Shown here: positions 1-56,921 of the stretch, piece by piece
Numbering within the stretch: the stretch's first letter is position 1
How the letters are laid out: each line of letters starts with the position of its first letter
Source of the DNA: Mobula hypostoma
Taxonomy: Eukaryota
NCBI RefSeq assembly: GCF_963921235.1
Contig: NC_086108.1
Location: 92,382,001-92,446,000 of the forward strand
Length of the DNA: 64,000 nucleotides
Direction of reading: 5' to 3'
Notes under the pieces: model-generated
The model's database searches: none
Told to the model about the DNA's origin: nothing
Seen by the model: the letters and a program-made list of their open reading frames with translations, nothing else
Translations under genes and position numbers: made by a program

Positions 1-954
1 TAGACCAAGAAAGTATACAACAATGGATAGTCCAATTGTATCTGAGCCAATTGCCATGATGCTGAACTTCCATGGAGTACTCTGAAATACTCTCAGGTGG
101 GACATAAAACATACAACATGATTATTTTGAGGACCAATGAAATCATTGAGCTGAAATAATAATTCCCTTCCTCTGTCAGACCCGCTGGGCAGCTTCAGTG
201 CTTTATTTCAGATTTCCAACATCTCCAGTATTTCGGTTCCATCTTGGCTTGGTTATGTTTTTGACTAAGTTGATTTTTTTTCACCATCAGCACAGTTGCA
301 CTCAAGACTACGTGTTCAGCCCTGCTCTACTTGTCTTATACTTATGTTGACTGTCAGACTAAGTCATGTGGGGCTTAGTTTACTTATTAGTTGAAAGCCG
401 CTTCCATCATGCCGGTCATCGAATAGCCCGTTTGAAGGATGCACAGCTCTTTCCCATTGGTTGCCTTATGTGCCACGGCACCGGTGTCTGGTTTCAAGCA
501 CCTCAGGGGTGTAAGAATAGCGCATGCAGGAGGCTCAGACTTTCTCCTTTTGTCTCCAGGGCCTCTTCACACAGCGAGATGATCGCGACCAGTGCTGAAG
601 AACTGTGGGAAAGTATGCTCCAGACTCGCACTCTCAGCTAAGTACCTCCCTGCTGAATGTGTAGTTGTGTAACTTGTGGAGACTTGGATGTTTGGTCGAA
701 TGTTTTACTGTTTATAAATAAGTGATTAATTCATATTCAGTGTCTCTGTCTCACACTCCAACCCCAGCTCCCAAATGAATAGACTCGTATCTGCCTCTCC
801 CGGGCTACACTTTATCATGACCCAAGCCAACTTTTCAATATGTTCTACGAGCTGGAGGAGTGGCTTAACAAAAACCAATTAGAAGTGTGAAGAGAGAAAC
901 ACCTGCCACATGAAACAACAACAGCCAAACCAGAGAACCTGCTTCCACGTTACA

Positions 955-3740: not shown

Positions 3741-6544
3741 GAATACACAATCACTTGATTGCGTTCTGACTATGCTGGAAAACAGCATCACAGGAAAATC
3801 CACATCACATAAGTCTTGAGTGAACTAGTGAAAAAAAGGTTTGTGAATTCCGGTTTTCTTTACAAAACTTGCCAGATCTGTCCTGAGTTCAACATAAAGC
3901 TATAAAATATGCATAAAAGTTGTCGAGCAGCGTTTGTCGGTGCAAGAAGGAGCCATTTCAAAATACTAAAGCCAGTGAGAGAACGAAAACATCTTTCCAA
4001 AAGGTAAATGCAAAGATATTAAACTCTTCATTTTATTCTCAAAGGTGCAGTTGGAATTTACATTGCTTATATGAAAGTCATTCAGACTTGTAGAATTACA
4101 GAGATCACATATAAAGACTTTACCAAACACATTGTCATTCCTACAAATAAACCACAGATTCTGCAAGGAGGACTCGTTTTTAATAATAGAATGATGCATG
4201 GAAAATATAGACAAAAAGACATCTAACTACTTATCTGTGAGTGGGAATTTTCCAAGGTGATAAATTGACTAAACTTCCTGTAGAAGGTTTTAACACACAT
4301 TAGATCTGTTGCCAAAAAATTTAATGAAACCTGCTGTAAAGACAGAGTAAAGTCTGGAAAAATGTACCTCCCTCCATAAATTGTATGTGCGACCTCCTAA
4401 CATTATCTAAAAGTTATCAAATCTGCACCCAGAAGTCGACGTGCAGAATATAACTGTATGTAGTTTGAAGACTGCATGAATCACAAGCAGAAAACAACAA
4501 TCAGGATTTTGTTCATATTCAATGCCTTGGACATTAGACTCTATGACGGGTCAACCTATAGCTGGGGAAGTGATGTCACCCTCCTGTTAGACTGTTTAAG
4601 CTTACTTAGTTTTTATTCTTTCTTTCTTCTCTAATATTTGTATATCTGTGCACTTGTAATGCTACCGTGACACTGTAATTTCCTTTGGGATCAATAATCT
4701 ATCTGAGTACAATAACATCCTCAGATTAAAGGTACGTCTGTTTAGAACGGAGATGAGGAGGAATTTCTTTAGCCAGAGGGTGATGAATCTGTAGAATTCA
4801 ATGCTATGGATGGCTGTGAAGGTCAAGTCATTGTGTATATTTAAAGCAGAGGTTGATAGATTCTTGGTTAGTCAGGGCATCAAAGGTTACAGGGAGAAGG
4901 CAGGAGGATGGCTTTGAGAGGGATAATAAGTCAGCCATGATGGAACAGCGGAGCAAACTCAATGGACCAAATAGCCTAATTCTGCTCCCGTGGAGACACT
5001 TGGAAAAAAAACAGCTTAGCAAACCATGCAAGTTGACAAAGTCAGTGCATTGAGCCAACTCTTGGAATTGTTTCAGTCCCAGAGCCACATCAGGAAAGTT
5101 CCTATTGTGGACCTGGGAATTTTTCTGAGAGGTGTTCCATTTATCATCACTCATTGAGTAGACTGACACCATGATTTTGGTGGGTGGACACAAGAAGAAC
5201 ACTTGTGCCTTGAATTTTCATTTAGGAATTGCAGCATTAATTAGGGAATGATAAATGCACATAAAAAATGTTGCATAACTTGGCGACAACAGTTTTTCCA
5301 CGGTGTTTACTTAAACTTCTTGTCAGTGCAAGTTGTAGGGCTGGGATGTGCTCTGAATATAATCTCAACAAATTAATAATACCGTAGTTCATCCTGTAAC
5401 GAGTCCTTGCTGCAGGAAGTCTGTTAGCAATGGAAGGGCTGAATGTTGATATCAGACTCGGCATCAAGTTTACTATCAGTGACTTACAGTACATTGTGAA
5501 ACGTGTTGCTTTGCGGCAGAGGAGCAATGCAATACATAAAAAACTGTTCCTGCAAAGATGAGTGCGTGTCTTCCGGCTGCTGATGGTAGCAATGAGAAGA
5601 GGGCATGTCCAGGGTGGGGAGGACCCTTAATGATGGATGTCGCCTTGCCGAGGCATTGCCTATTGATGGTAGAGAGGCTGATGTCTACGATAGAGCTGGC
5701 TGCGTTTAAACCCTCTGCACCTTTTTTCTGATCCTATGCATTTGCATCTCCATATCAGACAGTGATGCAAACAGTCTGTGGTACATCCGCATAAATTTGC
5801 TAAAGTCTCTGATGACACACCAAATCTCTTCAAACTCTTAATGAAATATAGCGACTGGTGTATCTTCCTTGCACCAGTAGCAGTCACTACAATCAAATAG
5901 CCTGATGTGTACTGAATGGGGGCCACATAAATAAATGACCCAAAAATAATTTTAAAAGACAACTTCAGTAAGGCTACTGTACCCAGCACAATTCAGCCAG
6001 AGAAAAAGAACTGTGGGTAGAGATTCAAGACAGCTGCCGCTTCACCACTTTCCATTGCAGTTGAGAAATGGACATAAAATGAAGGGGAAAAAGCAGTAGG
6101 ATCAGGAAGGAGAGTAGAATAGACATCAGCACGTAGACTCTCAAGAGTGCTGGGGCAGCAGCCAGGGGTAATTGTGATCAGGTTGCACTTTGCTCATAAA
6201 GAGAAATATAGATAATTTGAAAATAAAATATAGTTGCCCACAGGTGCCAACGCCTTTGATGAGAAGAATGGAGACGAATGAAGGACACAGCAGATAATTG
6301 GTCCTGCTGATTCCCAGAGAACAATCTGTGGATAATGTTACAATTGACATTGGTGATACTAGGCAAACACACAAAACTGCAGATACTGGAATCGAGAGCA
6401 AAAACAAAGTGCAGGCAGAACTTAGAACGTTACAGCACAGTACAGGCCTTTCAGCCCATGACTTTTAACGTACTCAAAGTTCAATCTAACCCTCCCCTCC
6501 CACATAATCCTCAATTTTTCTTTCATCCATGTGCCTATCTTTTA

Positions 6545-7460
6545 AGACAAGTCAAGTTTATTGTCCTTTAACTATATACATGTACACTGTCAAATAAGGC
6601 AATGTTTCTCCCGACCAGGGTGTGTTATATATAACACACATATAACACAAAATAACTTAGGAAAGTAAGAATTTAAAAAACTACAAATGAATTACTCACA
6701 AATAAACAAAGTAAAGTGCATATAACACACATATAACACAAAATAACTTAGGAAAGTAAGAATTTAAAAAACTACAAATGAATTACTCACAAATAAACAA
6801 AGTAAAGTGCATAAATTACAGTAAATATTGTAAGGTACAGTGACACCTCAAATGCGATGCAGCAGGGAGTTCAGAAGCCTAATGGCCTGAGGGAAGAAGC
6901 TGTTTTTCATCCCGGCTTTTCTTGTTCTTATGCATCAAAATCTCCTGCCTGATGGTAGAAAGTTGAAGAGGATGTTGGATGGATGGGTGTCCAGCGCTCC
7001 TGATAAATGTCTCCAATGGATGGTAGGGAGGCTCCTCTCAGCCATTCTCACAGTCCATTGTGGGGACTTCCAGTTTCAATGCTCGCCTGCTCCCATACCA
7101 GATGGAGATGTAGCTTGTCAGGACACTCTCAATGGTGCTCCTGTAAAATTCAGTTAAGATGGGGATGGGGGAGCCTCATGCCTCAAACTCCATAGGGAGT
7201 TGAAGCATTGCTATGCCTTCTTATTTAGGGAGGTGATATTGAGGGACTAGGTGAGGTCATCTCAGGTGATAGGAACTCGCAAGAACTTTGTGCACTTAAC
7301 TCTTTCCACAGAGGAACCATGTATGTGCAGAGGGGGATAGTTCATCTGTACCTTCCGAAGGTCCACAGTGATTTTCTTGGTCTTCTCCACATTCAGACTT
7401 AGGTTGTTGTTCTCATACCAGTCCATTGGCCACTCGACCTCATTATTGTCGATGAGGTGA
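6545..7460 (-). mobile_element. Degraded Rex1/Babar-type LINE
   Basis: WYENNNLSLNVEKTKKITVDLRK...VERVKCTKFL; (CTTGA/T)-type tail at about 6545. Confidence 0.7.
6630..6811. repeat. Perfect 91-bp tandem duplication
   Basis: 6630-6720 is identical to 6721-6811. Confidence 0.95.
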
Positions 7461-7795
7461 ACCACTGTTGTGTTCCTAAAGTATCTGCCTCTACTAAGAA
7501 CGGGAGAAAATCTGCAGATACTGGATATCTGAGCAACACACACAAAATGCTGGACGAACTCAGAAGGCCAGGGAGCATTGATGGAAAAAATTACGGTCGA
7601 TGTTTCAGGTTGAGACACTTCCGGCATTTTGTGTTTGTTGCCTCTACTACGACTCCCAGCAATGTGTAATCCAGGCAGCATCCCTGTAAGTCTCCTCTGC
7701 ACCCCCTCAGAACTCAGCCGCTTGAGCAACATCTGTAGAATAAAGGAATGGTCAACATTTCTGGTTGGGATGCTGCATCAGGATTGAGAGTGTAG

Positions 7796-8396
7796 CCTGA
7801 AACCCTCACAAATTTTTATAGATGCACCATAGAAAGCATTCTTCTAGGGTGCATCACAACCTGGTATGGAAGTTGTCCCGTCCAAGACTGAAAGAAGCTG
7901 CAGAAGATCGTGAACACGGCGCAGCACATCACAGAAACCAATCTTCCGTCCGTGGACTCACTTTACACCGCACGCTGTCGGAGAAGTGCTGCCAGGATAA
8001 TCAAGGACACGACCCACCCAGCCAACAGACTTTTTGTCCCTCTTCTCTCCGGGAGAAGGCTCAGGAGCTTGAAGACTCGTACGGCCAGATTTGGGAACAG
8101 CTTCTTTCCAACTGTGATAAGACTGCCGAACGGATCCTGACCCGGATCTGGGCCGTACCCTCCAAATATCCGGACCTGCCTCCCGGTTTTTTTGCACTAC
8201 CTTACTTCCCATTTTTCTATTTTCTATTTATGATTTATAATTTAAATTTTTAATATTTACTAATTTTAACTATCTTTAATATTTAATATTTGTAATCCAG
8301 GGAGTGTGAAGCGCAGATTCAAATATCGCTGTGATGATTGTACGTTCTAGTACTAATTGTTTGGCGACAATAATGTATAAAGTATAAAGTATAAAG
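7796..8396 (+). mobile_element. Young Rex1/Babar-type LINE 3' fragment with (AAGTATA)n tail
   Basis: FYRCTIESILLGCITTWYG...RFGNSFFPTVIRL; nearly identical to 12987-13339 and 14394-14965. Confidence 0.85.
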
Positions 8397-10409
8397 ATGA
8401 TATACAGGGGAGGGGCTGGGGCTGTGGTTAGGGTCGGGGTCAGGGTCGGAGTTGGACACCACTGCTGCATCCAACTGTTGTAACGTATAGTTATGTAAGT
8501 TACTGTCAGCTTGAAATGACAGGTCTGGCCATGCTCTTCAGATTAGCAGTTTCTCAGATACTCTAACCACACTGTTAGAATCAACAAACATTCTTAAATT
8601 CAATCATGGTTAAATTCATCTAGATCACATTTATTCCCCATTCTGATGTTTGTTCTGATCATCAACTGAACCTCTTGACCATGTCTGTATGCTCTTATCC
8701 ATTGAGATTTTGCACATGATTGGCTAATTAGATATTTGTATTAAGAAGCAGGTGTGGAGGTGTACCTAATAAAGTGACTACTGGATGTATATTATTTTTC
8801 CTCAGAAAAACAAATTTCTTCCCTATAGGTTTGCTTTTCTTTAATGTTCCTCCAACATTTTGTGTGTGTTACTCTGGAGTTCCAGCACTTGCAGAATCTC
8901 TCGGGTGTAAGTTTAAACCTCTGTCTTCAAGGCACCATACCATCCACTACACACAGTAGGTGCTTTTGCCAATAAGTGGTGTGCAGTTTGGGGGGATGGA
9001 AAAGGATTTGTGATGCTGTGACTATTATTGCATTACCTTCAGGGTTAAGACAAGTTCACAGGATCTGTAATAAAAATCGAGCCGCTGGATGTAGTCAGTG
9101 GATCAGGGAGCGTCTTTGAAGGGAAATGGACAAGTCAGATTTACAGGTTAAGACCCTTCATCTGGAGCGATAGAGTAGACTGGGGAGACAGCCAGTATAA
9201 CGAGGTGAAGGAGAAACGTGGCAAATGATAGGTAAATTCACATGAGGATGGTTTGAATGGCAGATGAAGTCAGGCGGGGGAGGGAAGGGTGATATCAATC
9301 AATGTTATAGACTTGGGAAGGAATAGGGTCTCTAGCTATGTCCAGGCATAAAGGTTGGTATAACTATTTCCTATGCAATCAAATTTTACTCAATCTGTTA
9401 AAGATCTTTAAGCATGAGAAATAAAGCTGGTCTGGTATTGACACTGTTGTAATCTGTGAAGGAAGAGAAATATAAAATAGTGTAAGGAACAGAGAAAAGT
9501 GAAACAAACTATAAAATTATTACTAGCTCACTTTATGTTTCAGCAATCAGAAGACCTGAATTTACACAAAACACTGCTATATTGCTGGGATAACACACAT
9601 GCTAAACTTAAAAGATAATTCAAAGATTCTCATTTGATGTAGCTGACCACGGTGTTGACCAGTCATTCAGATTGCCTACACTAAAAATGAAATTACATCC
9701 TCTTAAAGCTGTCAGAATTTTATTCAATACATTTTGTTTCATATTTATTGTTGGAATAGTATACCTGTTTGCAAAATGGTATCATTTGTATTATAATTAA
9801 TGTTTGTTTATACCATAACAAATCACACGTGTGAAGCAAGGCAAAGTAAACACTTCACTTGAGTGTGATGCTAAATCATGTTGGGCTTTACATGGTTGTT
9901 TGCATTTGTCTGGGACCACAACATCTCCAGTGTTATCACCTGGACTGCATATCCAAGAGGCCACTGAAAAGTCTCCACTTTGCCCCTCATGAAGAACTCA
10001 GAACCAGAGAAGGAATCACCTCTCTCAAATTAAGGTTGTGTGAACCTCCATAGAGATAAACAACATCAAAACCGGCCATTCACCCATGTCCATGCTGACC
10101 CATTGGCATCCATTGTTGTTCTTCCCACCTTTCAGTGCTTGGTCCATAGCCTTCTATGCCCGGGGAAGTCAAGTGCAAGTCTAGAGAAATGCTGTCAGAG
10201 ACCCTGCTTCCACTACTCTCTACAGGCATTAAGTCCTCGCCACTCTCTGGGTGGAAAAGGTCCTCACAGATTTCCCCCTAAATCTCATATCTCTTACCTA
10301 AATTTCTGTCCTCTTGTTTTATTCACCTTAGATACAGGGATTTTTTTTTTCCAGCAGTCTATACTTTCTAACTAAGCCCTGGTAATTTTCTATCCCTCAA
10401 TCATGTCTC

Positions 10410-14965: not shown

Positions 14966-16715
14966 ATAACTTGGAGTCTAGGCCTTTGCTCTACATTTGA
15001 AGGCCAGCAATGTGGACGTGTAACGAAGGGCATCCGTGGACAGATGACGGGCCAGCAAACACCACAGAGGAAGACCACCAAGGACAACAGCTGGTGGTCC
15101 CCCAAGTTGGGGGGTACCTCCAGGTCGGCAGGTGCGGGAACTGGGGGTCCATGCGGGTAGGTGTCACAAGGGCCAGTGACCCCCACTGCCCACCACCCCC
15201 CCAGCAAATTGGCAAGTCTGGAGTTCAGGGTCCTGTCGTCAGCAAGTACAAGTTCAAGGACTGGAGTTCAGGGTCCTGGGGTTGGTACTGAAGATCAAAG
15301 CACGAAAATTGAAGACCAAAGGCAACGAGTCCAAAGATCGAGATCCAGTGGCCAAAGTCCTGGGTCTGTGAGTCCACCAGGGAAATCGGAGGCCCAGTGT
15401 CTGTGAATACCCAAGTCCACTGGAGACTGGATGCCCAGAGGTGGCTGCCCTGCTAAGGTTGGAGGGATGTGTGTGGTGGGGTGGGGGGGGGGGAGGGTGA
15501 GAGGGAGGAAAGGGGCTTGTTTTAATGTTTTTTTGTTCTGCTGAACATTGTGAGCAGGTTATATTGGTGCTGGAATGTGTGGTGACCTTTGTGGGTTGCC
15601 CCTAGCACATCTTTACATTCTGTTGGTTGTTAGTGCAAATGACACATTTCACTGTACGTGTAATAAATAAATTAACCTGAATCTGAATTGGAATATTAAA
15701 GAAGTGATATGAAACCTTTAAGACACACCTATAGTCCTGATGAAGGGTCTCAGCCAAAAATGTCAACTCTTTATTCCTTTCCATGCATGCTGCCTGACCT
15801 GCTGAGTTTCTCCAGCATTTTAAGTGTGTTACTCTGGATTTCCAGCAACTGCAGAATCTCTTTTGTTTAAGACACATCAGCAATTCTTTAAAATAGGCTT
15901 ATACATATAAAATATTTTACTGTTCATTTACATTACTATTTATACAGAGCTATTGAATACATATTTACTAGAAAAAGGTAGTCATTTACAGAAAGTGTTT
16001 AAATGGCTCTACTAAAGAACATTCAAATGTTTATTTCCCTGCATTGTTTCCAAGCATATGACTTTGGCTCCCCCTGCTGGCTCTATGAAGAATGATATGA
16101 TGCCATTCAGCTCAGTAAGATTCCACATTGAATCCCTGGCCTTGGCTGATAAGCTTTTCTATCGCTTCTAGAGCTTCACAATGTCTGGGAGCTGAAACAA
16201 GAATAAGATCAAATGTAGCTCCTGATCTCATACATTTATCACCAACACCAGCTGGAAGACTAAGTGAACAAAAGACTGGACATTTGTGATGACCCCAGGA
16301 AGAACACAATAGCGATACTCACCGTTCAGTGGCAAATACACACACACAGGACAGATGTTTAGGCAGCAGGTTAAATAGTAAAGTCTATGTATGAATCTAC
16401 ATGAGTCAATGAATTGTGAACAGCATGACTAAGGAAAAAAAAGTCAGAGGATTAGGTTTTTTAAATCTCTGAAGAGGTTGTATACGTTTGTATTAGTCAG
16501 AAGGCAAATCCTGTATTTTATCAATTCATCTCAGTTGCAGCACATCCCATATTACTGCAGTTCCTTTTCACTGCATTCTGCATACAGCAGGTGGAAAATG
16601 TATCTGTTCTGAAGCCTTCAAAGTATTCACACCTGTCGAGGAAAAGATCCTTTCCTCCACTAAGTTTCCTGTGTGCCCCATCATTAGAACACAATGGTTT
16701 CATAAGAAAAAAATA

Positions 16716-23590: not shown

Positions 23591-23787
23591 CAAAGTATTT
23601 AAAGAAGAATTAGATAATTTTTCTTTGAAAGGTCAGGGAATGGGCACAGAAGAGATAAAGCCACTTTTTGCAAACCAGATCATTTTTCAAGAGTAAACAC
23701 AAACTACTCTGCAGATGCTGGGGTCAAAGCAACACTCACAACACGCTGGAGGAACTCAGCAGGTCGGGCAGCATCCGTGGAAACGAT

Positions 23788-23825
23788 CAGTCAACGTTTC
23801 GGGCCGGAACCCTTCATCAGGACTG
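23788..23825 (-). ncRNA. Minimal hammerhead ribozyme motif with intact core
   Basis: CAGUC-CUGAUGA-AGGGUUCCGGCCC-GAAA-CG-UU-GACUG on the minus strand; GUU triplet. Confidence 0.8.
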
Positions 23826-24311: not shown

Positions 24312-24349
24312 CAGTCCTGACAAAGGGTTCCGGCCCAAAACATTGACTG
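24312..24349 (+). ncRNA. Decayed hammerhead motif (CpG-type G>A changes in the core)
   Basis: CAGTC-CTGACAA-AGGGTTCCGGCCC-AAAA-CA-TT-GACTG; mirror copy of 23788-23825. Confidence 0.6.
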
Positions 24350-26345
24350 ATCGTTTCCACGGATGCTGCCCGACCTGCTGAGTTCCTCCAGTGTGTTGTG
24401 AGTGTTCATTTTTCAAGAGGATGTGTTTGCTGCCACATTATAATATTGTTCTAATTTCTGTACAATGCTATTTGATTGCCAAACGTGCCATTCCTCCTAA
24501 ACATCACCTCTTATCAATGGACTTCCAAGTCAAATCATATGAAATACCACACCAGGAGCTGCAAGATAGCCTGATGAGATATGCATTGTTTTTCTTGGTT
24601 AACTGGAAGCACACAGTATATAGGGCCAGTGTGAAAATGAAATGGAAAACTAGATAGATAAACTAGAAGCTTAGATTATCCCTTGTACACTGAACAGAAC
24701 TCTTTGATGGTCACAAAATCTGCATTTGGTTTCTTCAATGCTGAGAGCACCACATTAACCAAGCCCAATACACTACACTAGAAAATAGGCAGAAGAGAAC
24801 AGTTGAGTCCATGAATGCTGGGGACTGGCACAAGGGCAGGTATTGCATCTCCCACAGTTACCTGAGAAAGCACCAACAAAAAGCCTAGTTGGCAGAAATG
24901 GAGGAATTATCAGCCCTCCAGAAAGTTGAAAATGGAGAGATGGGGAAGATGTATGTGATGAAGGAATCTGGTTTAAACTGGTAGAAATTATGAAGGATGA
25001 CGTATCAAATGTGGAAACTAGAAGAGTGGAAGGTGAGGAACTCCATCCTTATTCTGACAGGGAAGGCGGGGTGAGAGAAGTGTGATAAAGAGGCAGCTTT
25101 GTCAAATGTGGTGGAGAGAAAGGACAACAATGAAGTCACTGGTGTGGAACATCTTGCTAGAGCATACATTACATATGGAGAAACAAATATAAACACAGGA
25201 CATTCTGCAGATGTTGGAAATCTAGAGTAACACACAGAAAATCCAGGAGGAACTCAGGTCAGGCAGCATCAACAGAAGTGAATACTTTGCAGTGGAGCAG
25301 CACATCAAACACAAGAGATTCTGCAGATGCTGAAAATCCAGAACAACACACACACAAATTGCTGGGAACTCAGAAAGCCAGGCATTATCTATGGAAATAA
25401 AAAAAAACAAAGTGGAAGTTTGCAAAGGACTAATTACAGGTAGCTACATGAAAGTTGGTATAGTTGCGGTGGATATGAATGGTTTTGTGCTTATGATGAA
25501 TACTGACAGCTGACCCATCTCCTAAAATATCAAAAATTAGAGTCAAATATGAACCAGGTGAACATGAGTCAGGTGGAAAATAGCTTTACAGGTAATCAAG
25601 TCAATTTAACTACCATTAAAGGAATAATCTGGATTAAAGATATTAATAAGTTTGTCTGCATAAAGATGATAAGGATACTCCAAAAAAGTAACAAGACAGA
25701 CCAGTGGCTTTCTGAAGCTTTCACTGAAAACCTAAAAGTGGTAGCTGTAATCTGTTTCTCACAATGCATCAGCCCTCGGTACATATGGACAATTACGCAA
25801 ATTCAACCATTACCATCAGGAAGTTTCATGCTTTAGCTTAGTACCAAAGGCAAGAGAGTACTGGGTTCAGCCCTGGCAACACAACAATTTTCAAGTAAAT
25901 CACATGAACAATCAAATAGCTACAATATTCCTGGTATTCCATCTAGCCTCAAATTCAAAGTAAAAATTGAAATGCCATCAGGTCTAACTTTTGAAACTAA
26001 AATTGAAATACTCATAAATAGCAATTCCCAGGAGCATTTTTTTCAATAACTTCATAGTAAATGAGATGAGTTTTTAAACCTGTCTTGAACAATTACAAAC
26101 ATCACATGTAGAATTCAATACAGCAAAATTGTAAACCATACGCAAAGTATATGGATAATGACCAGCTGTATGCACAGAAATAGTAGCGTGTAAAGTAGAT
26201 GATCTTCCAAATGAGAAATATCTAGTCAAAGCTAGTGCAGAGTGTGTACAACTGTGTCTAGACATTTTTCATAGTTAATTACATTTTAATTTCCAAAATG
26301 CTTGCATAGGTGCATGTGCAGTAAATAATACAACTCATTTAAAGT

Positions 26346-35932: not shown

Positions 35933-36870
35933 GCACAGAAGATGCTGGGGGAGCTCTGCAGGCCAGGCAGCATGTATGGAAAAAGAGTACAGTTGACGTT
36001 TTGGGCTAAGACCTTTCAGCAGGACTGGAGAAAAAAAGACGAATAGTAGATTTAAAAGGTGGGGGAGGGGAGGGAGAAACACAAGGTGATAGGTGAAACC
36101 GGGAGGGGGAGGGCTGAAGTAAAGAGCTGGGAAGTTGATTGGTAAAAGAGATACAGGGTTGGAGGAGGAGAGGGTGGAATTATTGGAATGTTCGAGAAAT
36201 CAATGTTCATGGTGGCTGCTCGGGCAGAATATAAGGTGTTGTTCCTCCAACCTGAGTGTGGTCTCATCGCAACTGTAGAGGAGGCCATGGATTGACATAT
36301 CAGAATGGGAATGGGAAGTGGAATTAAAACAGGTGGCCACTGGGAGATCCTGCTTCTTCTGGCGGATGGAGCATAGATGTGACATACAATGGGAATACCT
36401 TATATTCCTCTGGGTAGCCTCCAACCTGATGGCATGAACATTGACTTCTCTAACTTCCAGTAATTCCCCCCACTCTCCTTCACCATTCCCCAACCCTCCT
36501 CTCCCTCTCACCTTATCTCCTTGCCTACCCATCGCCTCCCTGTCAGGCTCCTCCTCCCCTTTCTTTCTTCCATGGCCTTCTGTCCTCTCCTGTCAGATTC
36601 CTCCTTCTCCAGCCCTATTATCTCTCACCAATCAACTGCCCAGTTCCTTAGTTCACCCCTTCCTCCTCCAATCTATCACCTTGTGTTTCTCCCTCCCCTA
36701 CCCCCACCTTTTAAATCTACTCACCTTTTTTCCTCTAGTCCTGCTGTAGGGTCTCAGACCAAAACTCAGCTGTACTCTTTTCCATAGATGCTACCTGGCC
36801 TGCTGAGTTCCTTCAGTATTTTGTGTGTGTTGCTTGGATTTCCAGCATCTGTAGTTTGTCTCGTTTGTGA
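35933..36870. mobile_element. Penelope-like element, two oppositely oriented 3' fragments (fold-back)
   Basis: Minus half (to about 36382) encodes ...HGLLYSCDETTLRLEEQHLIF. Plus half starts about 36393 (LIFLWVASNL../QPDGMNIDF-type) and runs to the common 3' tail. Decayed hammerheads at both ends. Confidence 0.8.
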
Positions 36871-37558
36871 TTAAATATGGTGGATTCTGGATAATTGGGC
36901 CATCATTTATTCAGGGCAGCCGAATATTTGGGACAACTCTTTAAGAACAAAAATTAATTGAAAAAATAACAGGATTTCCTTCATTTATTTGGGACACCAA
37001 GCTGCTTAATTGTCGTAGGAGACTGTTGCCGAACAGTTTCTAACTAGCATCAGTCGTGCGCACTTTTGTGGCTGTTAAGACTGCGGTTTCAAACACTCAA
37101 GCTTCGAGATGCCAGAAATGGGCAGGAGTGAAAATGAAACCACTACTTCAGCAAGTTAGGAAATATGAAGAATTTGAAGGTATCAACAATTCATCTTGAA
37201 TGTTACAATGAAATTGAAGATTTGGAGGTTGCGACAGTTTCTGACTACTGAAAGTCATGCATACTTGTGTGGTCGTTACACCCTACAGCATGCTAAGAAC
37301 AAACAGTTTTCAAATGGCATCAGTTGTGTTTGCTTGTGTTATGTCATTCATTGGGGCCGACCAATGCCAAATTAAAAAAGGAGTAACTTTTGACACTACT
37401 TCATGCAAGAAGGGAATGAAGACAGTCCATTATCTGCACTAGGTGTCTGCGCTGATTTTGTTCACTTACAGTCAATAAAAAGAACACAGTAGTGTACACT
37501 GTACGAATTCCTCTATCAATAACTATTGGGAACTAATAAATGGGGGAGATCTTAAATG

Positions 37559-37668
37559 TAAACAGTTAGTCCTGACGAAGGGTCTCGGCCTGAAACGTCG
37601 ACTGCGCCTCTTCCTATAGATGCTGCTTGGCCTGCTGCGTTCACCAGCAACTTTGATGTGTGTTGCTT
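37559..37668 (+). mobile_element. 110-bp hammerhead-bearing short retroposon with 13-bp TSD
   Basis: TSD GAGATCTTAAATG at 37546-37558 and 37669-37681; inserted into the 5' end of a CR1 copy. Confidence 0.85.
37567..37604 (+). ncRNA. Minimal type I hammerhead ribozyme motif with intact core (Penelope-type)
   Basis: UAGUC-CUGACGA-AGGGUCUCGGCCU-GAAA-CG-UC-GACUG: stem I UAGUC/GACUG, stem II, palindromic ACGU stem III, GUC cleavage triplet (cut after 37599). Confidence 0.8.
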
Positions 37669-39316
37669 GAGATCTTAAATGCATTTTTTGCATCTGTATT
37701 TACAGACGGAGATGGACACAGTGTCTACAGAAGTAAGGCAAAACAATGTCAATTTCACTGACTCCATGCAAATTACAGAGGAGGAGGTGTTTGCTGTCTT
37801 GAGGCATATTAGGATGGATACATCCCTAGGTTTTCCCTCGGACCTTACAGGAAGCAAGTGTAGAAATTGCTAGGGCCCTAGCGAAGATGCTTAATTCATC
37901 CTTAGCGACAGGTGAGGCGCTGGACGATTGGAGGATAGCCAATGTTCTTCCACTGTTTAAGAAAGGCTAAAAGTAAACCAGGAAATGATTGGCCAGTGAG
38001 CCTGACATCAGTAGTGGGAAAGCTGTTGGAAGGTATTCTCAGGGACCAGATATATGAGTATTTGAATAGACATGGACTGATTAGGGATAGTCAGCACAAC
38101 TTTGTGCATGGTAAATCGTATTAACTAATCTTATAGAGTTTTTTTCAGGAAGTTACCAGGAAAGTTGATGAAGGCAAGGCAGTGGGTGTTGTCTACATTG
38201 ACTTCAGTAAGGCATTTAACAAGGTCCCACGTGGGAGGCTGGTCAAGAAGGTTCAGTCACTTCTCATTCAAGATAAGGTATTAAATTGGATTAGATGTTT
38301 GCTTTGTGGGAGAAGCCAGAGAGTAGTAGTAGATGTTTGCCTCTCTGACTGGAGGTCTGTGACTAGTGCAGTGCCGCAGGGATTGGTGATGGGTTCATTG
38401 TTGTTTGAAATCTATATCAACGATCTAGATGAAAATGTGGTTAACTGGATCAGCAAATTTGCAGATGACGCCATGGTTGGAGGTGTAGTTGACACAGAGA
38501 AGACTATCATGGCTTGTAGCGGGATCTGGACCAGCCGGAAAAATGGCAGATAATGCAGTCAAGTTTGAGATGTGGAATTTTGGTAGGACCAACCAGTATA
38601 GGTCTTACACAATGAACAGTAGGGCACTGAAAAGTGCAGTAAAACAAAGGGTTTTGGGAATACAGGTCCATAATTCATTGAATGTGATGTTACAGGTTGA
38701 AAGGGTCATAAAGTATTGAGTGAGGAGATGGGTTTTTTTGTTGAAGTTCTAAAATTTGAGGCCTAATATGGAGTACTATATGCAATTTTGGTCATATACC
38801 TATTGGAAAGATGTAAATAAGGTTGAACAAGTACAGAGAAGATTTACAAGGATGGTGCCGGGTGGAGGACTTGAGTTATATGGAAAGATTGAATAGGTTA
38901 GGACTTTATTCCTTGGAGCATAGAAGATTGAGAGGAGATTTGATAGAGGTATTCAAAATTATGACGGGCACAGATAGGGTAAACAGAAGCAAGCTTTTTC
39001 CACTGAGCTTAGGTAGGACATGGGTTAAGGGTGAAAGGTGAAAAGTTTAAGGGAGACATGAGGGGAAACTTCTTCAGAGAGTCTTGACAACGTGGAATGA
39101 TCTGCCAGCACAAGTGGTGTATGCGAGATTGATTTCAATGTTGTATAGGTACATGCTTGGAGGGGTATATAGAGGGCCATGGTGCTGGAGCAGGTCAACG
39201 GGATTAGGCATCTTACATGGCTCTGCATAGACTAGAGAGACCAAAGGGTCTGTTTCTGTGCTGTTCTTTTCTATGACGCAAACTAATACACAGCTTTATT
39301 CAGTAGTACTGTAGTA

Positions 39317-40124: not shown

Positions 40125-40960
40125 AGTAAATTGCTGAAGGAACTCAGTGAATCAAGCAGTATCTGTGCAGGCAAAAAGACAGTCAATGTTTCAGGTCATG
40201 ACCATGCATCCGGTCTTAGTGTACGAGAGAGTGAGAGGCAGGACTAGTGAAACAGGGGCTGGCAGGTGAAAGGAGAACAAGGTGAGGAATTGATGGGCAG
40301 CTGGAGCCACATGGGGGAGAGGAGAGCAGAAGCTGAAATCTGACATGTAACAATGGTAATAAATGGAACTAGATACAGGAGGGATCTGTGTAAAACCAGT
40401 TGGGGAAAGGGATAGGAGACCAGTAGGTTGTGTATATGGGTAAATACCAGATAAAAACAGGTAGGGAAGGGATGGAAATTCAATAATGGGGAGCTGGATT
40501 TTGGTAAAAGGGAGGCAAGGGAAAAAAGCAAGAACTTGGATGAATAAGAAGAAAGGCACACAGAGGCCTGAGAATAGAAAATTCATTTTCCTACCATTTG
40601 GTTGCAGCCTACCCAAACAGAATATTAAGAATAGTTTTTCCAGTATGCACTTGGCCCCGTTGTGGCAGTGGAAATGGCATGCAACCAGACACTGAAGATG
40701 GCCAGTACGGGCAGAACTCAGGTGCGCTGTAAAACGGTTGCCTCGTCTATTGGCCTTGCCAATGTAGAGGCCACATCAAGAGCACCGAATACAATAGATG
40801 AGATTAGAGGAGATGCATGTTAACCTGTACTTGACCTGGAAGAGTCCCTGGATGGCGGTGAGGGATAACGTAAACCACGGAGTCACAGAGGGTCTTCCCT
40901 GTCAAAGCAGAAAAGAGTGGGGAGGGGAAAATGTGACTGGTGGTGAGATCCCAATCCTGC
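40125..40960 (-). mobile_element. Degraded Penelope-like element
   Basis: Reverse-strand similarity to the GIY-YIG region and 3' tail of the 41670-42347 copy. Boundaries approximate. Confidence 0.6.
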
Positions 40961-41669
40961 TGGCAGAGGATAAAGGATCATTGGATGCATTTCAGATCAA
41001 TTTTCTTCATTGAGCAAGCTGTTACACAAAATATTTTAAACTTAACAAGTCAGTATCAGTTCCTTTTTTTCTTAGGAATATTCCATATCAATTGATTTGC
41101 ATTCACCTAGTCATAGAGGCCCAGCTTGGGTTTCATCAGAACCACCTCACTCCAGACCACATCATAATATTCAGAATCAGATTCAGGAACAGAACAGATT
41201 TAGATTTATTATCACTGAACTGTATGACGTGAAATTTGTTGTTCTGTAGCAACAGTACAACCCAAGACATAAAACTACAAAAAAAAATTGCAAAAGAATA
41301 ACAACATAGTGTCCAAACATGGACTAAACAGCTGAATTCTAAAGGTGACACCAAGGCAGAATTTGACCAATGTACTATCGTGATGTCTTGGGAAAGCTTG
41401 AAGTCAGTGGACATCAAAATCCTCCAGTGGCTGAAATCACAAAGGAAGACGAGACTGTACAAGCTGGTATCTGAATCAACAAATATGCTGGAGGTACACA
41501 GCAGGTTGAAGACCATCCATGGAGTGAAAGGAATTGTCAGCATTTCAAGTCAAAACCCTGCATTACTCATGTTGCAGGAATTCAACCTGAGATGCTGGCA
41601 AAATATTTCCTCAACATCCTCCCCAAGCCCCACAAGGCTGTTTGGGTCCCTTATCTAAGAAAGAATGTG

Positions 41670-42347
41670 ATGCGACATTTCACTTGCCAGTCCGTTGGGG
41701 TCATCTGTTGGACCTGGTGCTCCCTGTGTGGCTTCTTGTACATTGGTGAGAGCCGACGTAGATTGGGAGACCGCTTCGCTGAGCACCTACACTCCATCCG
41801 CCAGAAAATCAGGGTCTCCCAGCGGCCACCCATTTTAATTCCACTCCACATGCCCATTCCGACATGTCCATCCAAGGCCTCCTCTACTGTCACGATGAGG
41901 ATTCGCTCAGGTTGGAGGAACAACATCTTATATTCCATCTGGGTAGCCTTCAACCTGATGGCATGAACATCGACTGCTCGAACTTCTGGTGTTGCCCCCC
42001 ACCATTCCCCATCCCCTTTCTCACCTCATCTCCTTGCCTGCCCATCACCTCCCTCTGGTGATCCTCCCCCCTCTTCTTTCTTCCATAACCTTCTGTCCTC
42101 TACTATTAGTTCCCTCCTTCTCCAGCCCTGTATCTCTTTCACCAATCAACTTCCAGCTCTTTCCTTCACCCCTCCCAGTTTCACGTTTCACCTCATGTTT
42201 CTTCCTTCCCCCCCACCTTCTAACTCTGACTTCTCATCTGTCTTTTCTCCAGTCCTGAAGGGTCTCAGCCAGAAACATCGACTGTACTCTTTTCCATAGA
42301 TGCTGCCTGGCCTGCTGAGTTCCTCCAGCATTTTGCGTGTGTTGCTG
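41670..42347 (+). mobile_element. Penelope-like element, GIY-YIG endonuclease remnant plus 3' end
   Basis: HFTCQSVGVI...CSLCGFLYIGESRRRLGDRFAEH and RLEEQHLIFHLGSLQPDGMNID; decayed hammerhead at about 42250-42284. Confidence 0.85.
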
Positions 42348-43200: not shown

Positions 43201-43909
43201 TCAGCTCCTGTAGTAAAGCACATCTAATATCCTTCTTCTTATGCTATGTCCTGCAGTCCCTGATAAGCTTTCTTCACATTTCCTTGGACTGCGAGTTACT
43301 TAAATAATTTTGCTCACAACCAGCAATGAAGTTGCACTGTGCAGTAGGAAATATAATTATACAGAACCACTGAGACATATAAGGAAGATCATAGACCCAA
43401 TACAACTCAACACAGTATTCCGCAAGAGCAAACATATCTGGAAAAGGAAACACAAGGAATTCTGCAGATGCTGGAAATTCAAGCAACACAAATCAAAGTA
43501 AACGCAGCAGGCCAGGCAGCATCTCTAGGAAGAGGTACAGTCGACGTTTCGGGCCGAGGCCAGTCCTTGTGCAGGATTCCCTAAAGGATAATTTGCAGGC
43601 CGAGTCTGTGGTGAGGATAGCAAATGTAATGTCATCATTCATTTCAAGAAGACTAGAATATAAAAACAAGGACGTAATGTTGAAACTTTATAAAGCACTG
43701 CTGAGACCTCACGGAGTATTTTGAACAGGTTTAGGCCTCTTTTTTTAGAAAGAATGTGCGGAAACTGCAGCGGGTTCAAAGGAGGTTCGCAAAAATGATT
43801 CCAGGATTGAATGGTTTGTTGTATGAAGAGCTTTAAGATGCTGGAAAAGATTTGTAGCTCGTGTTAAGGATGTTGTTGTTGAGTGGCTCGCCGAGCTGGC
43901 TTGTTAGCT

Positions 43910-48439: not shown

Positions 48440-51400
48440 TCAAGTTGGAATTGATGCTTTTATTCAGAAAACCAATAACCAGAGCATATGCTTTATTTTG
48501 ATTTTGTAATAGGATCTTTCAGCGAATCATTCATATCAAACAAAGGCTGGATCAAAATGAGAAAAACATTAATCAGAAATTTAAAAATTGCTAAAACAAT
48601 AAACTACTACATAAAATGCTTTCAGTATCATCTGAGGTATGATTTTCAGAAGGTTGTTTTCAACAGCACAATACATACAAAAATATATGTAAATAATATT
48701 TACATATGATAAGGTGAACTGAATTTACTGATTCTTAAGTTAAGTCATGCTAACCTGCAATTCATAATATGAAATCTTTAATCATTCAAAAAGACATGTC
48801 ACAAAATAATGGCATGTGCCCAATTATCCCAGCTTGTCATAGTGGTTCATGGAATTCAAATCAACACTTTTCCTTTCTTCTTTCCATCAAATATTTCTCC
48901 TTGGAGGATCTATTCAATTATTCTGAAAATTATTACAGAATCTGTACTCACCACCTTGTTAGGCAGATCATGACAAATTGCCTTCATTTTTAAGGCTTTA
49001 ATCACCACTGGAATCAGTTAATCCATACTCATCAAAACCTTCCTATAAAAACTTGCTAACATTTTGCATAGATTTTAAATAGAAAACAAATCACACTGTG
49101 CTAATATTCAGCAATTTCACTATATTGAACATATATTTAATAAAACATTAGTTTATTGATATTGCCTCACTATATTAGCTTGTATTAGAAATGTAAGTGA
49201 TATTCAGGACTAATCATCATTTGAACAAATCATGCTTCAAAATAATTTACAAGAATATCACTCTCTGCTTCATTAACAAAATGTAAGGATAAAGCAGGCA
49301 AAGAGGAAATATAACTATAATAATCCTTTCAAGATTTCTCATTTAGAATAAATAGTTCTTTGAATTTTGGAATAATTATGCTATAAATATATATATTTGT
49401 TTAATATAAAAAGAACTATCTTTATCAGCTGCTGCCTCTTGCTTGGGTAACTGCACAGATATAATAGTACCCCAACTTGTAATACAGGTATCAGATTCAC
49501 ATGTGGATGTTGGACAGCAAAGTTTCAACCAGCTACTGAATCAGTGAGAACATCACAATAATATACCAGACATTCAAACTGTCATACTTTTAAAGAAAAG
49601 GCAACAATAAGAACTGGGAACCCTTGTCAGTTTTCTCCTTATGCAATCTTTGGTAGCTTAAATGTCACATTCATCTGAGATTAATAAATTCACAGAACAG
49701 AAATCAAACTGGGAACTAGTTTGTCCAAATGACTAGGCACTACAGTTTTTCTTATGTTCCAAGGTGAGTTTTGATCTGCTCAAACTTTCGATGGGACTTC
49801 AAATGAAAAAGTAAATATTTTGCAATGTTATATATAAAAGACTAAATTCTATCCTTAAATCACCATCACCAAGACTAATATAAAACAACTGAAATAACAA
49901 AGTGTGGTGGAAAATCAAAACAATTTTAAAACCTCAATTTTTATGATTCTCAACTTTTTACATAATAAAAATATTAAATATGCATATATCTATACCTCAA
50001 AAAGGTGGCTGAAATAAACACAAGCTATTTATTTTGGTGTACAAGAATTCCCTGAAAACTTGGTATATAAACAAGCTATATTAGTTTCTTCATACAGAGC
50101 CTACAAAACTAAGTATTGAACTACAGGATTAAAATTTTAAATGATCATATTTACAACAAATTAGTTAGGCCACGCTTTATCAAAAATGAAGACTGCTGAA
50201 TCACACAACTTCAACATTGGCTGGGTGGGTAATACAGATGTGGAACAACAGCTTTAAAATGCAACAGATAAACTGTACCCTCAAACTGGTGAGGCGTTCT
50301 TTAACTTTGCAATATACAATCAAATTCCAATACAAGCTTATAGCTCTTTCATATAAATTGTGACTCTTTTGTATTCCTTGATTTACCAGAAGAGAAAAGG
50401 TATTATTGCTATTGATGAAAGGAATGTAAAACAATACTCTAGTAATAATAACATGGTAGGTCACCTCTCCAACTAGCATATATGATATGGTGAAAAATGA
50501 TCTTAAAAATCAGATATACAATGACACAGGCAATAACTTGATGTGTAGGAAAAATATACAAAATAAATTAAGGTTTGATAAACAAATAAATCTTTTTAAA
50601 AGTTTAATGATGCATGTCTCTGCAGTTTGTTTAACATATTGTGACAGTGCTAAAGAAAACTTGGTGCATCTGAACAGTAGACTGATAATGGATCTAACAA
50701 GTGTGTTTTAGGATAACTTAGAGAACTATGTGATGAGCAACTACACTGTACCATTCTGATTCTAGTTAGTTTTCAGGTGCATCATGTGACCTTACTGAGT
50801 AGGGAAATATAATATAAATATATTAAAATATAAAAATAAAAAAGTGGCCATTACCTATCTGATTTCAATTAGGATAAATGCATTCTTAGCTGCCCACTGA
50901 GGTTCAGTGTACTCATTCTTTTTTATCCTGGTGAACGTGAAAATAATGTGGCAAAGAGAGATACAGGAAACAGGCCCCTTGTCCCACTGAGAACACACCA
51001 ACCATCAAGCTCCCTTCTTACCAGCATTCATTTTACTCTCCCCACATTCTGCCGCTCACCTCCACTCAAGGGACCATTTCTAGTGATCAATTAACTGACC
51101 AACCCAAACACGAGGAAATCTGCAGGTGCTGGAATTTCAAGTAACACACATAAAAGTTGCTCGTGAACGCAGCAGGCCAGGCAGCATCTCTAGGAAGAGG
51201 AAGACGACCCTTTGTCTCAGCCCGTTACATCTACTGTACCTCTTCCTAGAGATGCTGCCTGGCCTGCTGCGTTCACCAGCAACTTTGATGTGTGTTGCTT
51301 AATCGACCAACCCACATATTTTTGGAGGATGAGGAGGAAACGGGAGCAGATGGAGAAAACCCACATATGGACAGAATCAGAGACCAGGATTTCACCCGGG

Positions 51401-56079: not shown

Positions 56080-56790
56080 TGTAGGAATTCATCTTGCCTA
56101 TACCTCTTCCCATACATCTTCCTCTCCACTACATCTGCTCCCAGGATGAGGCTTTTCTTTCCAAGACATCAGCACTGACACAACAACCTACAGATGCACT
56201 TTCAAAGACTCTACAACTCATGTTATCAGTATTTTTTTCTATAATTTGCACAACTTGTTTTCCTTTTTGCATTAGTTGTCAAGTCTTTGTTGTGTTTTTC
56301 ATAAATCCTATCGTATTTCATTATTTTCCAGTAAGCAGCCTGCAAGAAAATGAATCGAGGTAGTATATGTTTTTGATAACAAAATGACTTTGAATTTTGA
56401 TACGAATACCATTTCGCAACAACTTTTTCACCCAGAGATATCCTCCTTCTTTAAAGAACAGGGTTTACCTTCCTCAACCATTGACGCTACCCTCAACTGC
56501 ACTTCCTCCATTTTCTACATATCCCCCTCCTGGCACTTAAATATGCAAGTGGCCAAATGCTACATCTGCCCATTCATCTCCTCCATTCAGGGCCCCAAAC
56601 ACTTCACCTGCAAATCTATTGGGATTGTCTACTCTATCTGCTGCTCCCGATGCAGCCTCCTTTGTATTGGTGAGACCCAATATAGGTTAGGAGACCACTT
56701 TGTCAATCATCTCCACTCCATCCACAAATATAGCAGAATTTCCCGGTGGCCAACCATTTTAATTCCCATCCTCACTGCTGTTCCATGGCA
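56080..56790 (+). mobile_element. Degraded Penelope-like element interrupted by a LINE 3' tail (about 56170-56400)
   Basis: ICSQDEAFLSKTS, then ISSFFKEQG...HFTCKSIGIVYSICCSRCSLLCIGETQYRLGDHF. Confidence 0.7.
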
Positions 56791-56921
56791 GCTGTGTAGT
56801 CCACGGTATTAAATAGTTAGATAGTCATAGTTTGTTTCCCAGGTAGCGAGTCTACAACCATGTGGGACCAGCTTGGGCAGGCACCTCAGTCAGTAAGGAC
56901 AAGTTGGGCTGGTAGGCCTGT

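Follow-up and report, generated by a model that had tools for sequence, protein, structure and literature searches.

The analysed window comprised 64,000 nucleotides of Mobula hypostoma (assembly GCF_963921235.1, contig NC_086108.1, positions 92,382,001 to 92,446,000 of the forward strand). A 13-mer was found in it exactly twice, at 37546-37558 and 37669-37681, bracketing 110 bp. Because, among 18 rows matched by the right flank, 10 distinct loci of this host LINE carried the site once and without the insert, the repeat was a true target-site duplication, and the 110-bp insert between perfect 13-bp duplications given in a preliminary description of this DNA was confirmed. The insert had been described there as a hammerhead plus a short tail; the motif was found, but all but 4 of the 110 bases (37559-37562) belonged to the terminal repeat of a long element. 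Relative positions are counted from the first base 3' of the predicted hammerhead cut, which is position 0 (window 37600). The features of the locus are listed below.

37546..37558 (+): left copy of the 13-bp target-site duplication; exact repeat, with empty sites
37559..37562 (+): four extra bases at the 5' junction, which the element lacks here
37563..37668 (+): 3' end of the pseudo-LTR of a Penelope-like element, Neptune-type by linker and ORF, from -37 to +68 relative to the cut; 105/106 identical to L139:2841-2946
37563..37572 (+): zone of the 5'-end pile-up, -37 to -28, in which two acceptor-like AGs lie along with the 5' strand of stem I
37567..37604 (+): putative minimal type I hammerhead, from the sequence and the PMC4209133 consensus; predicted cut 37599/37600
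37605..37668 (+): 64 nt from the ribozyme to the tail-less 3' end, the first of two end points of the family
37669..37681 (+): right copy of the 13-bp target-site duplication; exact repeat
37682..38553 (+): decayed LINE reverse-transcriptase region, presumably CR1-like, the host and insertion target of the stub

The A residues at 37564 (-36) and 37568 (-32) are initiator-like by consensus. The four bases at 37559-37562 may have been added without a template or may be left over from an inverted second strand primed at the tail, and are too short for proof; the solo copies L110 and L282 had 11-16 nt of the inverted tail end at the 5' junction. The same element was seen at the same base of other host-LINE copies (L002, L003, L006 and L007), which were picked by a query that included that flank. 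A target preference for the bases following tail-less ends was rejected, because the query contained that flank.

Other copies were present in the window. Those of the young family lay at 51139-51300 (an inverted pair) and 43481-43561. Older related families, with the hammerhead kept and the flanks changed, were found at 2108-2209, 7532-7621, 15732-15833, 23727-23824, 24313-24385, 35939-36026, 36736-36835 and 42251-42346. Decayed Penelope-like frames with GIY-YIG-like motifs were recognised by eye at 40191-40775 (-), 41475-41966 (+) and 56354-56812 (+), and a perfect 91-bp tandem duplication occupied 6629-6813. Outside the window, one short copy occurred together with its upstream flank at both C1:170438 and C1:2960809 (L036 and L101), carried within another duplicated sequence.

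The parent element and its hammerhead motif

A 26-mer from the insert had 85,845 exact matches in the genome, and its reversed control had none. The terminal repeat of a full-length Penelope-like element (PLE) aligned to 106 of the 110 insert bases, with the near-complete identity listed above, and the Penelope-derived, retrotransposed origin proposed in the preliminary description was thereby supported. Such repeats are typical of sharks and rays. The full-length element (L139) was a partial tandem with a period of 3518 nt; within its open frame, 1018 codons long, RVT_1 (E 3.7e-5) and, at the C terminus, a GIY-YIG domain (E 0.004) were detected, both below the Pfam curated cut-offs; the Atlas clusters nearest to this ORF were RT/HTH_animal proteins (0.97). 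Partial tandems forming pseudo-LTRs were represented by L139 and L140, and 396 exact tail-to-ORF junctions were found. Many copies in set A (defined below) extended upstream via the 3' UTR into the GIY-YIG and RT frames. The family showed the features of EN+ PLEs, namely, RT and GIY-YIG in a single ORF, a partial tandem, an optional tail, an adjacent inverted copy and a target-site duplication, which measured at least 9 bp in 138 of 205 uncensored strands (mode 13-14 bp). A CX4CXXC linker between RT and EN was identified by eye, and the Neptune/Nematis type is defined by a CX2-5CXXC linker at this place (PMC8557442). The insert is the retrotransposed, cut-short tail end of a very abundant Penelope-like element and not a separate element.

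Stem I of the hammerhead motif was formed by 37567-37571 with 37600-37604, and the core comprised CUGACGA (37572-37578), GAAA (37592-37595), then CG, and UC (37598-37599). Four traits of the minimal PLE hammerhead were present: the core letters, a short helix I of 5 bp, a palindromic CG at 15.2-16.2 and an extra A after A9. At the sequence level, the minimal type I motif with a palindromic ACGU that had been proposed agreed with the consensus in PMC4209133. The claim that all conserved core bases were in place was correct for the letters; however, the G10.1-C11.1 pair of the minimal PLE hammerhead was replaced by G-U in this copy (U37591), and A37579 was an extra base between 9 and 10.1 relative to the published minimal consensus (PMC4209133). 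C was found at 11.1 in 25 of 173 scored strands and in the majority line of older families. The core was intact in 136 of 169 strands. Rfam returned no hammerhead family in the insert at E values up to 1, the insert folded no better than shuffles (z 0.99), and the predicted monomer fold was a rod that would pair up the core. Published minimal motifs cleave weakly, or only with protein (PMC4209133, PMC11167929).

The excess conservation of the core over the flank that had been anticipated was absent within copies, where the divergence was 0.97% in the core and 0.94% in the flank. The core was nevertheless kept between families whose flanks differ. Because it decayed like the flank inside copies and was kept between families, selection acted on the parent elements, not on the stubs. 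As a separate observation, loop II (37582-37586) could pair with a conserved purine-rich stretch at 37617-37621, about 20 nt past the predicted cut; a matching two-sided change was seen in one family (majority lines; one change, two families).

Start and end points of the copies

The ends of the copies were evaluated in three sets. Set A held the first 100 of the 26-mer matches (first 3.45 Mb of C1), with both halves of an inverted pair counted as strands. Sets B and C held 90 of 156 tail-less and 68 of 307 tailed matches, respectively, and were picked by the 3' junction only; the three sets minus 3 duplicates gave 255 strands. The 3' ends of 100 strands lay at +57..+76 or +100..+117, with 2 outliers, and the two groups were about 35 nt apart, which corresponds to the known tail. 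The 5' ends of the 255 strands were distributed as 9 beyond +28, 21 at +28..+1, 19 at 0..-19, 68 at -20..-37, 22 at -38..-60, 13 at -61..-100, 53 at -101..-690 and 50 farther upstream or cut off; chance matches displace individual calls by a few bases, and some of those at -41 and -47 were artefacts.

A stop at -20..-37 was thus found in 68 of 206 strands, about one third of the copies reaching the front edge of the motif. This interval was picked on set A and validated on sets B and C, which alone had 46 ends there, a 7.0-fold excess over the neighbouring positions (p 2e-17). The rate was 3.5 stops per 100 nt at -28..-36, compared with 0.2-0.6 downstream. In sets B and C, the interval contained the ends of 29 of 71 tail-less and 17 of 53 tailed strands, and the shared stop position indicated that the place counted, not the distance. 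Solo copies showed the pile-up too. No pile-up occurred at the cut site, where 3 ends lay at +1..-1. Genome-wide, 33,469 strands had the exact hammerhead stretch, and 23,906 of them (71%) continued to -44; 2,799 broke off at -32 (8.4%, the commonest single start) and 884 at -36. Inspection of 30 starts at -32 identified 29 real junctions. At -46, a putative branch point, 5 of 30 inspected cases were junctions, among 5,360 matches that lack an exact denominator, and the rest were mostly a subfamily variant. Assembled contigs from four runs had loose ends at -32/-31; since the ends of RNA are not visible in contigs and the sequences of older families part there, these were not counted as evidence. 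The clustering of the 5' ends of the duplication-flanked inserts foreseen in the preliminary description was therefore observed, but these ends are neither fixed at one base nor located at the cut site.

Inverted pairs gave further information on these limits. One tailed and one tail-less strand made up 91 of 94 pairs, as expected if both nicked strands prime, one per start site. The longer strand ended at -20..-41 in 59 of the 94 pairs. When one end lay at -20..-41, the partner extended beyond -60 in only 2 of 66 cases, compared with 26 expected from all uncensored strands including solo copies. Long inverted pairs also ended close together, e.g., at -531/-521 and -1073/-1089. The simplest reading of a limit shared by both strands is a shared template end; this limit likely marks the end of the template, with the start of the RNA as its likely nature.

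Templates, rival accounts and tandem units

In the preliminary description, the repeat was a non-autonomous, retrozyme-like SINE mobilised on its own, which would be transcribed and copied from its own short masters. The clustered 5' ends, the thousands of strands starting at -32 and -36 and the solo copies lying within clean duplications are in line with such an element. However, no fixed 5' end was present, since the top base held only a small share of the starts and most strands continued upstream. A SINE lineage was also contradicted by the variants: no private variant distinguished the short copies, 72 short and 103 long strands had the same mix (p 0.25-0.75), and no site from -20 to +65 differed significantly. 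Head sequence foreign to the long element was absent. Independent mobilisation was not supported either, because the repeat was the 3' end of an autonomous-type element and 103 of 255 strands ran more than 100 nt upstream of the cut; the tailed and tail-less stubs and the inverted pairs were the long element's own products. A lone hammerhead cannot release a monomer, and the stub lacks the downstream region whose counterpart was required in the Poseidon assay (PMC11167929), if the analogy applies. The retrozyme label did not fit the stub, because the insert is a monomer with one hammerhead and non-LTR retrozymes are defined by at least two tandem units, each with a hammerhead (PMC7229834; bioRxiv 10.64898/2026.07.22.740005). 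Copying from short masters is thus regarded as very improbable; rather than a SINE, the 110-bp insert is a copy truncated at its 5' end and without a tail. Still less credible is the account in which the pile-up is an artefact of truncation rising smoothly toward the 3' end combined with palindromic microhomology in the hammerhead. Stop rates were generally higher near the 3' end (0.3-0.4 vs 0.1-0.15 per 100 nt), and several inverted junctions overlapped by 5-12 nt within the stems. The maximum at -28..-36 was nevertheless flanked by 0.41 downstream and 0.3 at -61..-100, it recurred in solo copies, and nearly all inspected -32 starts were real; as an account of the main peak, it was refuted by validation sets B and C.

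An explanation that we consider possible, though rather unlikely, accepts the same truncated copies but attributes the cap to a road-block: a coupled pair of reverse transcriptases would stall at a folded or protein-bound hammerhead, or at splicing factors on the acceptor-like site immediately upstream. The -32 peak coincided with the outermost Watson-Crick pair of stem I and also with an AG after a pyrimidine tract, the predicted rod covered -33..+4, and a coupled pair would likewise give shared limits. A pyrimidine tract preceded the AG in 22 of 36 older-family copies. A reverse transcriptase is expected to pause when entering a hairpin; however, only 0.63 stops per 100 nt were found at +8..0, where this pause should occur. 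Second-pass stops were seen in 2 of 15 strands, compared with 68 of 206 in the first pass (p 0.15), and a large subfamily had G in place of the branch-like A. The Penelope of D. virilis has an intron that terminates at helix I (PMC4209133), and its start lies upstream of this intron (PMC2377424, PMC4209133). Here, none of 121 junctions joined an upstream exon recurrently. Spliced templates were rejected on these 121 junctions and on 12 mini-tandem junctions, which had no GT donor. As an observation of its own, window 37563-37569 together with the upstream part of the element (L139:2826-2847) contained a branch-like motif, a pyrimidine tract and an AG directly before stem I.

It is highly probable that the insert is a 5'-truncated, tail-less terminal-repeat copy of the 3.5-kb Penelope-like retrotransposon, whose own enzyme likely primed internally and ran off the end of the RNA before the hammerhead. 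By analogy with anole Poseidon, the RT-GIY-YIG protein would nick both target strands and start at two internal sites (+65..69 and +102). One template class would begin at -32/-36, probably at a transcription start on uncut RNA, and give the stubs; longer, multimeric or circularised templates would give the long and tandem copies. The hammerhead of the stub would be a passenger. In the only PLE assay, done in vitro with anole Poseidon (PMC11167929), the tail is accounted for by two internal starts, the chief template is RNA that has not been processed, and this template must include ORF sequence up to +172. Because it lacks the ORF-5' part that lies downstream of the start sites, the stub is expected, by analogy with this element of another clade, to be incapable of a further move. 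That templates begin at -32/-36 with the start of the RNA is a step to which we give about an even chance. The peak was broad, which counts against it. The base preceding the starts at -32 (31 G, 34 A and 35 C in 100 listed rows, by eye) and -36 (34 G, 33 A and 33 T in 100 listed rows, by eye) showed no excess of G, so that no cap signature was present, which also counts against an RNA start. The same holds for the coincidence of the -32 peak with the last Watson-Crick pair of stem I and with the AG after the pyrimidine tract, and for the D. virilis start, which is placed upstream of the intron. Furthermore, 13 of 15 long tandem copies that reached -20 in the upstream repeat passed the pile-up zone; their template cannot begin there, and two template classes are needed. 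An RNA start would fit the circular-template proposal (PMC4209133) if the long copies stem from cut and ligated RNA.

Short tandems were found among the tail-to-ORF junctions. Of the 396 junctions, 30 were examined, and 8 were short tandems in which copying had broken off between -32 and -156 and was taken up again between +176 and +408; further mini-tandems were L206, L272, L339 and L340. The tail-to-ORF pattern does not detect a landing short of about +120; jumps of smaller size were present in L162 and L219. One-off mini-tandems with jumps from the hammerhead front into the 5' part of the ORF were seen at L151, L152, L156, L158, L172, L174, L179, L180, L206, L272 and L340. In L272 and L340, repeated jumps hit the same base, as if the RNA had a fixed 3' end. 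Tandems of a hammerhead unit of 310 nt, extending from -34 to about +276, were found at L339 (G000:C2:157815000-157819500) and L405 (G000:C50:58410981-58414007), with 4 and 2 identical junctions, respectively, and with own target duplications and unrelated flanks. Repeated identical junctions are expected from a circular or multimeric template. Two family-wide polymorphic sites differed between the loci, and two independent jumps to the same base may also explain them. The 310-nt unit, not the 110-bp stub, matched the tandem definition of a retrozyme, and judged by its sequence it looks like a candidate nascent retrozyme. [quoted passage not shown]

Comparison with known systems

The 5'-truncated insertions of EN+ PLEs of the Neptune/Nematis type (PMC8557442, PMC3846280) are alike in the ORF with RT and C-terminal GIY-YIG, the partial-tandem pseudo-LTRs, the optional 30-40-bp tail, the inverted 5' piece, the target-site duplication and the CX4CXXC linker. 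Compared with the published passages, the ray family shows a strong 5'-end cap at the front of the hammerhead; its Neptune placement is a putative one, from the linker and the ORF. Neither the literature listings nor the passages of PMC8557442, PMC2377424, PMC3846280 and PMC6155905 described such a cap at PLE hammerheads, most subscription journals and Repbase/Dfam lying outside this search.

The hammerheads in metazoan PLE pseudo-LTRs, including fish Neptune, Poseidon and Xena (PMC4209133), share the core, the 5-bp helix I without helix III, the palindromic 15.2-16.2 and the extra base after A9, and are mostly solo and taken for truncated PLEs. In contrast to those motifs, helix II has only 3-4 bp here and the young subfamily has G-U in place of G10.1-C11.1; exact copies number in the tens of thousands here, whereas 4,000-9,000 motifs occur in coelacanth and Xenopus (PMC4209133). 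Hammerhead-bearing PLE stubs have been described since 2014, and the 110-bp insert itself is ordinary.

Poseidon of Anolis (PAc; PMC11167929) likewise has two 3' end points past the hammerhead, extension of both strands and no ends at the cut site. It belongs to another clade, and its starts lie at about +85..92 from the cut, compared with +65..69 and +102 here; activity was demonstrated for the Anolis element and is a prediction for the ray element. Metazoan non-LTR retrozymes (PMC7229834; bioRxiv 10.64898/2026.07.22.740005) are alike in the type I hammerhead, the origin from pseudo-LTRs and the long target-site duplications, but are tandems with at least two hammerheads, unlike the monomeric stub. 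As a natural experiment on what the hammerhead does and how tandem pseudo-LTRs arise, more than 85,000 young copies map the starts, stops and jumps of copying per base. The -32 cap and the 310-nt tandem unit make the circular-template and retrozyme-origin proposals specifically testable.
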